This document shows positions 3,879 through 10,980 of a stretch of 64,000 nt of DNA, in pieces. Position numbers and translations under genes: made by a program. Origin of the DNA: Klebsiella phage LPKP23; the sequence record PV112478.1; one strand, given 5' to 3'. The notes beneath the pieces are model-generated. The model did no database searches and was not told where the DNA came from. It worked only from the letters and a program-made list of their open reading frames with translations. Numbering within the stretch: the first letter of the stretch is position 1; each line of letters begins with the position of its first letter.

Positions 3879-3897
3879 TAGTCATAGGAAAACAAAT
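3879..3897 (-). promoter_or_regulatory. Candidate late promoter upstream of tailspike 1 (minus strand reads TTTGTTTTCCTATGACTA)
   Basis: T-rich stretch then TATGAC, placed after the terminator hairpin and 44 nt before the ATG; same motif sits before tailspikes 2, 4 and 5. Confidence 0.35.
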
Positions 3898-3922
3898 AGA
3901 GAGGAGCCAAAAGGCTCCTCTC
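3897..3922 (-). terminator. Hairpin agagaggagcc-aaaa-ggctcctctct
   Basis: 11-bp perfect stem with tetraloop between tailspike 2 and tailspike 1. Confidence 0.55.
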
Positions 3923-3933
3923 TAGAGTTTATT

Positions 3934-5901
3934 TTATTGAAGGAATGCTTTGACAGGGCCCAAGTAAACGGAACCTGATGTTTGATAATGACGAAGACCC
4001 ACGTGAACAGTCGCTGCCCCAGGCGGAACAATTACCGATCCGGAGCATTTTACAACATTAGATGCACTACCTGTCGTCCCTGAAAGATTCGTCCCAATTA
4101 CGTTATGGGTAATTTCTACACCTTCAATGTCGTAAAATGTATAACCGAAATAACAACCGCCATTTGTGGAAACAATATTTTCCCAATAGAGCGTGGTAGC
4201 TAAATAAAGAGTTTGTCCTGGCGAGCAGCGTAAACGTTGGCCAAATAACGTTGTCAATCCCCCAGTCGTTGTTGTGCTAAGCACTTTCGCAGAGGCGCCA
4301 ATTGATTTTGAGTTATCGTAAGTTATCGTAGGTTGGAAAGCGGTACCCGTTGCTGAATATATCGTAGACCAACCTGTCAAATCTGCGGTATTATAATTAT
4401 AATTTCTCAGCGGGTTCGTATAATCGCCGATATTTACCATGTCATTATTTCCGTAGATATCAAAATAATTATCGACAACTTTGACGAGGGCACCGCTACC
4501 TGTACATTTAACAACATCAACGGCCGCCATCTTATTGTATTTTCCAGCAGGACATCCCACTAGTCGGAAAATACAAGGACCTGATAAAGTGAACCATACA
4601 GGTTTACCTGCGGTTGTTCCTTGGTTCGCATACGTGGTGGCAACGTCATTTCCGCCGTCAATAAACGTGTTTTGGATATTGACAAACGGTTTTCTTTTTG
4701 AAGAGGTATAAAGCATCTTACCGTACGGGTTAGAGGAATTGTTCTCGAAATGACACCCTATGAAATTAATATTTCCCGTAGAGATATCAAACACAAGATC
4801 ACTATAGTCAAAAGAGTGCGAATAAAAATACGCATCAAGATACTGACCGGTACTGGGAACGTAGACACCCGCAGCGTTCCCGTTAGCGTTTAATCCATTA
4901 TACGTTACGCCACCGAAGATTGAAATGTTTTCCCCTGCGTCGTTGACGCAATTGAAATGCCAGCCATATCGCCAGAACTTACCCACAACCGGCTGTATAA
5001 ATTGCAGAAGGTACGTCGACTGCGAGCCGATATAAATGTTGTCACGAAATCCTTCCACCCACACTTTAGCTAACACCGTGGACACTTGGGTGTTTGTACC
5101 ATCGGGGAAGAACCCAATACCATCTAATGTCCCTACAGGTGTTATAGGTGGTTTCGAAACGGAAGGTCCTCCGTAAGGGCCTTGTAAACGAATTTCCAGC
5201 TCTGATCCTAAATTGTAAGTGGCGCCAGGGACACCTACGACCCGAACAGCATACCCGGTAGTCATTAATGAACCATCTACCACAAACCTTGAACGGTCCA
5301 TGATCAATTTTCCGGAAGCTGCGTAGACAGTAATTTGAGAAGTGATTCGGTAACGAGCATTCGATTCTTTAGAACGAACAGTATAACCTAACTTCAGTAA
5401 TTCTAAGGTTTTTTGTACTGCAACAGTATCATCCGTTATACCGTCTCCCTTCGCCCCATTACTTTCAAAGGTCGTTTGGCCAGAAATGTCATTCAGGGAA
5501 CCAGCACCCATGGGAATAATGCTCATACCGGTACTTTCTGTAACTGATGCTGCAGCTCTCATTTGTCTGCTCGTCGGTAACCTGACTTGTTCATTGTCAT
5601 AACCCAGAATAGGATTAGCTACTCCGTCATTATTTTGGTATTGCAACACCCACAGCTTCGCTGCGCTTTCGTACACGAAAAATACGTCCCCTGACGTTGT
5701 TCCGTTCAGGCCCGCATCCACAGACAGGAAAGCATTCTCGAAACCCAGCGTTTGACGAAGGTCGTTAATTTTGGTGGATTTAGTGAAGGGAACTCCTGCA
5801 CTGGTTTTGGCGTTAATCGGAACGACGTCATTCTCTTTGATGACACCTGCGTCACCGAGTTCAGAAATTTTGATTCCGATAGAATCTGAAGTCTTAGGCA
5901 T
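3934..5901 (-). CDS. Tailspike 2: N-terminal anchor plus Pectate_lyase_3-type beta-helix (likely polysaccharide depolymerase)
   Basis: N-terminal IKISELGD...LGFENAF...VFFVYES; GAKGDGITDDTVAVQ motif typical of the tailspike / pectate-lyase-3 family. Confidence 0.8.
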   Translation of the reverse strand: MPKTSDSIGIKISELGDAGVIKENDVVPINAKTSAGVPFTKSTKINDLRQTLGFENAFLSVDAGLNGTTSGDVFFVYESAAKLWVLQYQNNDGVANPILGYDNEQVRLPTSRQMRAAASVTESTGMSIIPMGAGSLNDISGQTTFESNGAKGDGITDDTVAVQKTLELLKLGYTVRSKESNARYRITSQITVYAASGKLIMDRSRFVVDGSLMTTGYAVRVVGVPGATYNLGSELEIRLQGPYGGPSVSKPPITPVGTLDGIGFFPDGTNTQVSTVLAKVWVEGFRDNIYIGSQSTYLLQFIQPVVGKFWRYGWHFNCVNDAGENISIFGGVTYNGLNANGNAAGVYVPSTGQYLDAYFYSHSFDYSDLVFDISTGNINFIGCHFENNSSNPYGKMLYTSSKRKPFVNIQNTFIDGGNDVATTYANQGTTAGKPVWFTLSGPCIFRLVGCPAGKYNKMAAVDVVKCTGSGALVKVVDNYFDIYGNNDMVNIGDYTNPLRNYNYNTADLTGWSTIYSATGTAFQPTITYDNSKSIGASAKVLSTTTTGGLTTLFGQRLRCSPGQTLYLATTLYWENIVSTNGGCYFGYTFYDIEGVEITHNVIGTNLSGTTGSASNVVKCSGSVIVPPGAATVHVGLRHYQTSGSVYLGPVKAFLQ

Positions 5902-10910: not shown

Positions 10911-10936
10911 ATCAAAAGACTAAGATAATATAATAC

Positions 10937-10966
10937 AATCGAAGGAGGCTAACTCCTCCTTCGATT
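10937..10966 (+). terminator. Hairpin aatcgaaggagg-ctaact-cctccttcgatt
   Basis: 12-bp perfect stem 27 nt after the tailspike-4 stop, followed by TTTTT. Confidence 0.6.
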
Positions 10967-10980
10967 TTTATATGACTACC
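10961..10980 (+). promoter_or_regulatory. Candidate late promoter upstream of tailspike 5 (TCGATTTTTATATGACTACC)
   Basis: T-rich plus TATGACTA (the octamer also sits before tailspike 1), 25 nt before the ATG. Confidence 0.4.

Follow-up and report, generated by a model that had tools for sequence, protein, structure and literature searches.

Putative terminator hairpins and candidate phiKZ-type late promoters at the tailspike gene boundaries of Klebsiella phage LPKP23

In bacteriophage phiKZ, the late promoter is the tetranucleotide 5'-TATG-3', whose G is the +1 position and which is recognised by the phage non-virion RNA polymerase (nvRNAP) (PMC4666361, PMC12809450). All four bases are needed in vitro (PMC4666361) and are held in a pocket of the β-like subunit gp123 (PMC12809450), and phages of this type carry out transcription independently of the host RNA polymerase (RNAP) (PMC4666361, PMC13282480). 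A passage of PMC7598289 credits the TATG late promoter to Ceyssens 2014; bioinformatic prediction of such promoters has been reported to fail, and they are considered unpredictable, given a core of no more than 4 nt (PMC7598289). In addition, phiKZ and 201phi2-1 have a conserved intrinsic-terminator motif, BCCYCCCCHWWDGGGRRGGBYTTAT... (PMC10914365, PMC11512511). Terminators and promoters are combined in the PeSLs of T4-like phages, which are composite terminator/early-promoter cassettes that mediate modular shuffling (PMC2839356, PMC4122927). Here we describe a 64,000-nucleotide stretch of Klebsiella phage LPKP23 (PV112478.1; the whole stretch is referred to as the window), in which five tailspike-like genes (TSP1–TSP5) are each preceded by a TATG sequence, at several of them directly after a stem-loop.

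We consider it probable that this element is a composite gene boundary, consisting of the intrinsic terminator of the upstream gene and a phiKZ-type late promoter, with the repeated sequences acting as homologies at cassette borders. In the proposed arrangement, a GC-rich hairpin would end the upstream transcript; its 5' arm is rich in purines (AGAGAGG...) and its 3' arm, which runs into a T-tract, in pyrimidines (...CCTCTCT). A T(-6)-N-Y(-4)-TATG sequence placed 0–10 nt past the terminator would then allow the phage nvRNAP to re-initiate at the G of TATG, a few nucleotides further on. The resulting leaders would be 25–42 nt long and contain a Shine-Dalgarno sequence. With a terminator and then a late promoter ahead of it, each 'KISEL'-type tailspike gene would thus be transcribed as a late unit of its own. 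Recurring terminator/promoter junctions would at the same time provide short homologies at cassette borders, across which the TSP3 cassette may have been flipped between genera.

TATG sites at a fixed distance from start codons

The core of the window is 99.3–99.5% identical to the ~300-kb Klebsiella phages KpLz-2_45, KpXa_1 and MJ359 (genus Siatvirus) and ~76% identical to vB_KpM_FBKp24 (Maaswegvirus; FBKp24 below) and Centimanus. A preliminary description of the locus had reported a T-rich motif ending in TATGAC upstream of the tailspike genes, and a TATG was indeed present at all five, with its G 25–42 nt ahead of the start codon (Table 1) and a T at position -6 in every case. The sequence identities given in that description were also recovered: the 15-mer TTTTGTTTCGTATGA is an exact match before TSP2 and TSP4, TATGACTA is common to TSP1 and TSP5, and TSP3 has CGTATGTAC alone. 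The 6-bp inverted repeat that encloses the TSP3 site is conserved in FBKp24, with differing loop flanks. A search of the window with TTTGTTTYSNTATGA, a long degenerate pattern, allowing 2 mismatches, yielded 4 matches against 2.6 expected; since this pattern was not enriched, the signal lies in the positioned TATG and not in the long pattern.

We defined a positioned site as a sense-strand TATG with its G 20–50 nt before a start codon and used dinucleotide shuffles as the control. Within the window, 10 of 32 upstream regions contained a positioned site compared with 3.3 ± 1.8 in shuffles, one of which reached 12, and the window-only evidence is modest. Across KpLz-2_45 (354 annotated coding sequences, 175 upstream regions ≥30 nt, 500 shuffles), the genome-wide enrichment expected from the preliminary description was found, with positioned sites in 43 of the 175 regions against 15.3 ± 3.9 in shuffles (maximum 28). 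The reverse complement CATA gave a count of 15, TATG ranked top among 12 letter permutations, and the histogram of TATG-to-start distances exhibited a sharp peak at 20–49 nt. Independent gene calls for the same genome gave 43 versus 17.6 ± 4.3, and the FBKp24 loci gave 18/49 versus 4.6 ± 2.1. Enrichment before structural genes was likewise observed in KpLz-2_45 (12/23 structural genes versus 31/152 others, Fisher p = 0.002), and positioned sites also precede genes that are not homologous to one another, encoding terminase, sheath and virion proteins. The T at -6 occurs at 31/43 positioned sites but at only 18/59 other TATGs in upstream regions (p = 3e-5); positioned sites further show a pyrimidine at -4 (36/43), an A at +1 (21/43) and a G-poor leader. 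T(-6)-N-Y-TATG is therefore likely to be a late promoter that is well supported in silico, and from these sequence patterns we infer a transcription start at the G of TATG and late expression.

The ATG contained in TATG could instead be a start codon, opening either an upstream leader peptide or a tailspike with an N-terminal extension. At TSP1 this ATG (3885) is in frame and the reading frame is open upstream to that point, and at TSP2 a 9-codon upstream open reading frame would end at a TAATG that overlaps the start codon. Across the genome, however, the ATG of positioned sites is in frame in 12/43 cases (chance, 1/3), in frame and open in 6/43, and preceded by a Shine-Dalgarno-like sequence in 6/43. 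The FBKp24 ortholog of TSP1 is annotated from ATGGCC, and the conserved base is the T ahead of the ATG, a base that plays no part in translation. A start-codon role for this ATG is thus highly improbable, and TATG does not conceal a translation start. The start of TSP1 likely lies at 3840 (MANNTRKISEL), and because the frame is open from 3885 to 3840, mechanical calling of open reading frames appends 15 spurious residues.

Recognition by the host was considered as well, with TATGAC or TATGAT serving as a degenerate -10 box of a sigma-70 promoter, since these hexamers match TATAAT at 4–5 of 6 positions. None of the 45 consensus matches (-35/-10 with 16–18 nt spacing) in positions 1–20000 falls on the five TATG motifs, however, and the -35 position would lie within the hairpin. 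The enrichment is specific to TATG at a fixed distance and does not extend to TATA-type tetramers, and phiKZ-type phages transcribe without host RNAP (PMC4666361, PMC13282480), so that a sigma-70 origin of the motif appears very unlikely. A separate, good sigma-70-like match, TTGACT-18-TACAAT, is present at 8192–8221 (-) within the TSP3 leader and ends 1 nt ahead of the ATG; it is conserved in FBKp24 and is probably a conserved 5' untranslated region rather than a host promoter. An Rfam scan of positions 1–20000 returned nothing relevant.

RNA polymerases of the lineage and points that weigh against a late promoter

The bare TATG core that the preliminary description gave for phiKZ late promoters agrees with the published promoter (PMC4666361, PMC12809450), and the link that it drew to the nvRNAP is borne out by homologs of all five phiKZ nvRNAP subunits in KpLz-2_45 (gp74, 4.6e-67; gp71-73, 4e-77; gp55, 1.4e-64; gp68, 2.9e-30; gp123, 1.9e-59). 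The gp123 homolog is a gene annotated as 'polymerase'. Together with a homolog of chimallin and a tubulin annotated as PhuZ, these subunits indicate a nucleus-forming, phiKZ-like (chimallivirus-type) phage. The window itself encodes phiKZ-type split RNAP β-like subunits at 22145–26632 and 26648–28279. The β/β'-like genes at 22145–28279 (-) and 42611–43207 (-) lie amid structural genes and probably encode virion-RNAP subunits.

One candidate for gp123 was rejected. A 455-aa KpLz-2_45 protein annotated as 'RNA polymerase beta subunit' (170811–172178 (-), L004 20811–22178) gave no PDB match and was found to be β'-like by homolog and profile searches; its profile matches β' residues ~750–910 and phiKZ gp74, with >100 metagenome homologs, and it is probably a virion RNAP subunit. 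A gp123 homolog search with ten concatenated hypothetical proteins returned AAA-ATPase matches only.

A second, longer motif, TTT(T/A)AA-N3-CTATATCAC-N3-A(T/G)TGAA, was observed in the window at 16291–16299 (-), 40847–40855 (-) and 52482–52490 (-). KpLz-2_45 contains ~20 intergenic copies, nearly all in the sense orientation and 38–145 nt before a start codon, and these precede the homologs of nvRNAP gp71-73 and chimallin but none of the tailspike genes. This motif and a positioned TATG coincide in only 2 upstream regions, and the longer motif is probably the early (virion-RNAP) promoter of the lineage.

Several points weigh against the assignment of TATG as a late promoter. The evidence for nvRNAP genes comes from the 99%-identical KpLz-2_45, and these genes lie outside the 64-kb window. 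The TATG pocket of gp123 is only partly conserved at an overall identity of 30%: 7 of 14 residues are identical (S144, F151, K158, H331, S334, S402 and Q466), 3 are conservative replacements (H185Y, N186Q and Y406F) and 4 are lost (K190, S330L, N398T and Y399), with p = 0.09. TATG has only 4 nt, and chance would account for ~15 of the 43 positioned sites. Of the 23 genes that are annotated as structural and have a usable upstream region, 11 lack a TATG, including two tail genes in which a hairpin is followed by TACA or TGATG in place of TATG. The same positional test was weak when applied to 150 kb of the phiKZ genome, in which the motif has been proven (29 versus 19.8 ± 4.2, z ~2.2; CATA, 25). 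This outcome fits the reported failure of bioinformatic prediction for phiKZ-type late promoters (PMC7598289), and the test is therefore not validated or calibrated as a promoter detector; this control neither validates nor undermines it, and the Klebsiella-phage signal is much sharper. Finally, no start-site, promoter, transcript-end or expression-timing data were found in the literature on FBKp24 and its relatives.

The two tail genes, KpLz-2_45 52953..54776 (-) and 59875..62145 (-), have a terminator hairpin and then TTTCTACAAGG or TTCTTGATGCC at the position of the TATG, and they represent either variant initiators or read-through genes.

Hairpins, conserved flanks and the inverted TSP3 cassette

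The stem-loop that the preliminary description placed directly 5' of each motif is strong at TSP1, TSP2 and TSP5, but it is decayed at TSP4 and missing at TSP3, where no significant stem-loop (z -0.5) and no terminator hairpin was found upstream. GC-rich stem-loops with a T/U-tract accordingly occur at TSP1, TSP2 and TSP5 and in a weak form at TSP4. In KpLz-2_45, a hairpin lies 5' of the positioned TATG at 19/25 co-directional sites but at only 1/18 divergent sites (p = 3e-6). This bias assigns the hairpin to the end of the gene that lies upstream rather than to the promoter, and we infer that the GAGAGG hairpins terminate transcription, each with its T-run forming a putative intrinsic terminator of the upstream co-directional gene. 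The low count at divergent sites also led us to reject the idea that the hairpin contributes to the promoter, such as by forming a DNA cruciform to assist melting. The orphan hairpin between the divergent TSP3 and TSP4 has no co-directional gene upstream and is therefore probably a terminator relic; it is presumably untranscribed.

Hairpins of this type are not confined to the tailspike cluster. Just downstream of genes, KpLz-2_45 has 90 terminator-like hairpins, 67 of them with a purine-rich 5' arm (AGAGAGG/GGAGG type), and the GAGAGG hairpin appears to be the generic terminator type of the phage rather than a tailspike-specific element. A TATG follows within 22 nt at 23 of the 90, compared with ~8 expected. 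In the FBKp24 record, 'terminator' annotations coincide with some of these tailspike junctions (the one preceding the TSP1-like gene, for instance) and recur at other places in the cluster; the record contains terminators and promoters as predicted by ARNold and PhagePromoter. Because T at -6 is retained at 16/18 hairpin-less TATG sites, we assign it to the predicted promoter, and what remains of the T-rich half appears to be mostly terminator U-tract.

Boundaries in which a hairpin is followed by a conserved sequence also occur at RNA processing sites, and long late transcripts could be cut near the TATG with hairpins protecting the 3' ends, as at the RNase III sites of T7-like phages. We regard such a processing or stability element as quite unlikely, because this lineage carries a polymerase known to initiate at TATG (PMC4666361), the 18 divergent TATG sites have no upstream co-directional gene and cannot be processing sites of read-through transcripts, and the U-tracts of the hairpins are typical of intrinsic terminators.

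Alignment of orthologous upstream regions between the window and FBKp24 revealed conservation of 11 of 14 sense TATGs, whereas 4-mers as a whole are conserved at a rate of 39% (p = 0.003). Of the three TATGs that are not conserved, the one at 52490 overlaps the CTATATCAC-type motif. At TSP3 the TATG is kept while its flanks have changed from CG-TATG-TACA in the window to GC-TATG-ATACG in FBKp24, and gene 17343..18020 behaves in the same way (GTTT-TATG-ATAAT versus ACTC-TATG-TAACG), as does the TATG of the 16308 gene, which is conserved between diverged flanks. The FBKp24 tailspike genes have the same layout of hairpin, T-run and TATGA. At TSP5, the segment 10965–11031, from just past the hairpin through the first ten codons, is 97% identical to an FBKp24 gene while the hairpins are unrelated. 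The promoter and the hairpin are therefore not always inherited together; this, with the co-directional bias of the hairpins as terminators of the upstream gene, speaks against the earlier suggestion that hairpin plus promoter were copied together with the gene.

The five tailspike genes are alike over their N-terminal ~100 aa (27–38% identity, with invariant K..SE, LR, FENAF and F.VY), and this comparison identifies them as paralogs in the N-terminal domain; the 'KISEL...FENAF' domain is the anchor domain. The upstream sequences might accordingly be passive relics, co-inherited or recently exchanged with the paralogous 5' ends of the genes by gene conversion and without any promoter role. The TSP2/TSP4 15-mers are inverted repeats prone to recombination, and the upstream blocks of TSP1, TSP4 and TSP5 are 86–97% identical to FBKp24 compared with a genome average of ~76%, both of which fit this explanation. 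On the other hand, neutral non-coding DNA as old as N-termini with 27–38% identity would be unrecognisable, positioned TATGs precede many non-homologous genes, and the TATG has been kept despite the diverged flanks at TSP3 and at genes 16308 and 17343. We therefore judge a purely passive origin unlikely and favour the terminator/late-promoter boundary.

The two TTTTGTTTCGTATGA 15-mers lie on opposite strands and form the left and right arms of an inverted repeat that flanks TSP3. The segment 5927–8238, which comprises TSP3 and its upstream spacer, is inverted with respect to FBKp24 (L007 20001–22310), whereas both sides are collinear, and the inversion junctions fall within the hairpin + 15-mer elements. 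The orphan hairpin that is beside TSP4 and decayed in the window is found in FBKp24 at the TSP2-like gene, where it is still perfect. As the N-termini have diverged to ~30% amino acid identity, a 15/15 match in non-coding DNA is not a passive relic of the original duplication, and it must have been maintained by functional constraint, repeat recombination or both. Inverted repeats at the ends of an inverted TSP3 cassette explain the TSP2/TSP4 identity better than passive co-duplication, and recombination at these repeats presumably caused the inversion.

Further features of the cluster were observed around these boundaries. A sixth fibre-like gene, which starts at 1046 (-) downstream of TSP1 and is truncated by the window edge, has an N-terminus unlike those of the tailspikes (MQTNFIQPGG...), an upstream hairpin without a T-tract and no TATG, on which grounds it is probably co-transcribed with TSP1. 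The 5' part of this gene (window 1–1048) shares 99% identity with a tail-fibre gene of FBKp24 (L007 27889–28936), and because the genome average is ~76%, the match suggests a recent horizontal exchange. Beyond TSP5, a perfect palindromic hairpin between convergent genes is 97% conserved in FBKp24 and looks like a bidirectional terminator.

Table 1 Coordinates of the TATG sites, predicted promoters, hairpins and tailspike-like genes in the window
Feature	Position	Strand	Details
TSP1 TATG	3886-3883	-	TTTGTTTTCCTATGACTA; gap from G to ATG 42
TSP2 TATG	5931-5928	-	TTTTGTTTCGTATGAG; gap from G to ATG 26
TSP3 TATG	8230-8227	-	CAATCGTATGTAC; gap from G to ATG 36
TSP4 TATG	8317-8320	+	TTTTGTTTCGTATGACC; gap from G to ATG 31
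TSP5 TATG	10971-10974	+	TTTTTATATGACTA; gap from G to ATG 25
TSP1 predicted late promoter/initiator T(-6)CC-TATG	3883..3889	-	predicted +1 = G 3883; leader 42 nt
TSP2 15-mer TTTTGTTTCGTATGA	5927..5941	-	U-tract + TATG; predicted +1 = G 5928; leader 26 nt
TSP3 promoter region GTCAAT-CGTATGTACA-ATTGAC	8217..8238	-	TATG 8230-8227 in the loop of the 6-bp inverted repeat (8238-8217)
TSP4 15-mer TTTTGTTTCGTATGA	8307..8321	+	predicted +1 = G 8320; leader 31 nt
TSP5 predicted late promoter T(-6)TA-TATG	10968..10974	+	predicted +1 = G 10974; leader 25 nt
Putative intrinsic-terminator hairpin TAGAGAGGAGCC-TTTT-GGCTCCTCTCTA, then T-run TTTGTTTT	3897..3924	-	3' of TSP2, before TSP1; -25.7 kcal/mol, z -7.1
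Putative intrinsic-terminator hairpin AAAGAGAAGAGGGT-CTTA-GCCCTCTTCTCTTT	5939..5970	-	3' of TSP3, before TSP2; -23.6 kcal/mol, z -5.1
Putative intrinsic-terminator hairpin AATCGAAGGAGG-CTAACT-CCTCCTTCGATT, then TTTTA	10937..10966	+	3' of TSP4, before TSP5; -21.0 kcal/mol, z -7.4
Decayed 'orphan' hairpin AGAGAAGGATGC-GGAAAA-GCTCCTCTCT, two bulges	8278..8305	+	divergent TSP3/TSP4 spacer; -14.3 kcal/mol, z -2.3
Terminator-like hairpin, perfect 14-bp palindrome	12927-12958		T-tracts on both strands; between convergent TSP5 and 12968..13534 (-)
TSP1, tailspike-like gene	1084..3840	-	likely start 3840; frame open up to 3885
TSP2, tailspike-like gene	3934..5901	-	list of open reading frames
TSP3, tailspike-like gene	5977..8190	-	list of open reading frames
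TSP4, tailspike-like gene	8352..10910	+	list of open reading frames
TSP5, tailspike-like gene	11000..12922	+	list of open reading frames

Comparison with phiKZ-type promoters, terminators and PeSLs

The phiKZ-type core is statistically visible in this distant Klebsiella lineage and, if the composite boundary is correct, would set off every receptor-binding gene as a separate unit of transcription. It yields concrete start-site predictions and a route to annotating late operons in Siatvirus/Maaswegvirus phages relevant to Klebsiella therapy. The combination of terminator, promoter and conserved N-terminal anchor may also define natural 'cassette borders' where tailspikes are exchanged or inverted, which could be useful for host-range engineering. 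More tentatively, and with less conviction than for the boundary itself, we suggest that the late promoter used by the nvRNAP of this lineage has become extended and closely fixed in position, as T(-6)-N-Y-TATG 20–50 nt ahead of the start codon, and that the junctions act as PeSL-like handles for inverting or swapping tailspike cassettes. Were the promoter extended in this way, late transcription units would be predictable from sequence alone; were the junctions such handles, tailspike inversion and swapping would drive host-range change in phages with hyperbranched fibres.

The predicted promoters resemble those of phiKZ and 201phi2-1 in having the same 4-nt core just upstream of late and structural genes (PMC4666361, PMC12809450, PMC10914365, PMC11512511). 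The resemblance extends to the homologs of the five nvRNAP subunits, chimallin and PhuZ in KpLz-2_45, to the presence of a separate AT-rich early motif, and to the preference for a pyrimidine at -4, which is seen both in the phiKZ sample and in the Klebsiella lineage. The differences are the Klebsiella host and the genera Siatvirus/Maaswegvirus, a gp123 that is 30% identical with a partly changed TATG pocket, the additional T at -6, which the phiKZ sample does not have (11/29), and the tight distance of 20–50 nt to the start codon, which makes the motif computationally visible in the Klebsiella lineage. The hairpins, in turn, share with the terminators of phiKZ/201phi2-1 the character of phage-wide, sequence-biased, GC-rich intergenic hairpins with a T-rich tail, whereas the polarity of the arms is reversed, with AGAGAGG purines in the 5' arm and CCTCTCT pyrimidines in the 3' arm of the predicted terminators of the Klebsiella lineage.

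Like the PeSLs, the boundaries described here combine a stem-loop with a candidate promoter, are repeated at cassette borders and contain rearrangement junctions within the repeat, as in the TSP3 inversion. The PeSL promoter is a sigma-70 early promoter, however, whereas the predicted promoter in the window is of the phiKZ-type late TATG kind and has no sigma-70 match on its motifs. The cassettes in the window are receptor-binding genes and not ORFans of hyperplastic regions, one rearrangement is documented, hairpin and promoter can be inherited separately (TSP5), and the phage is a chimallivirus rather than a T4-like phage. The resemblance to PeSLs is one of analogy and not of membership. No new kind of system is revealed by this locus: its boundaries would belong to the known kinds of phiKZ-type late promoter and intrinsic terminator, with a T(-6) extension that is possibly specific to the lineage.

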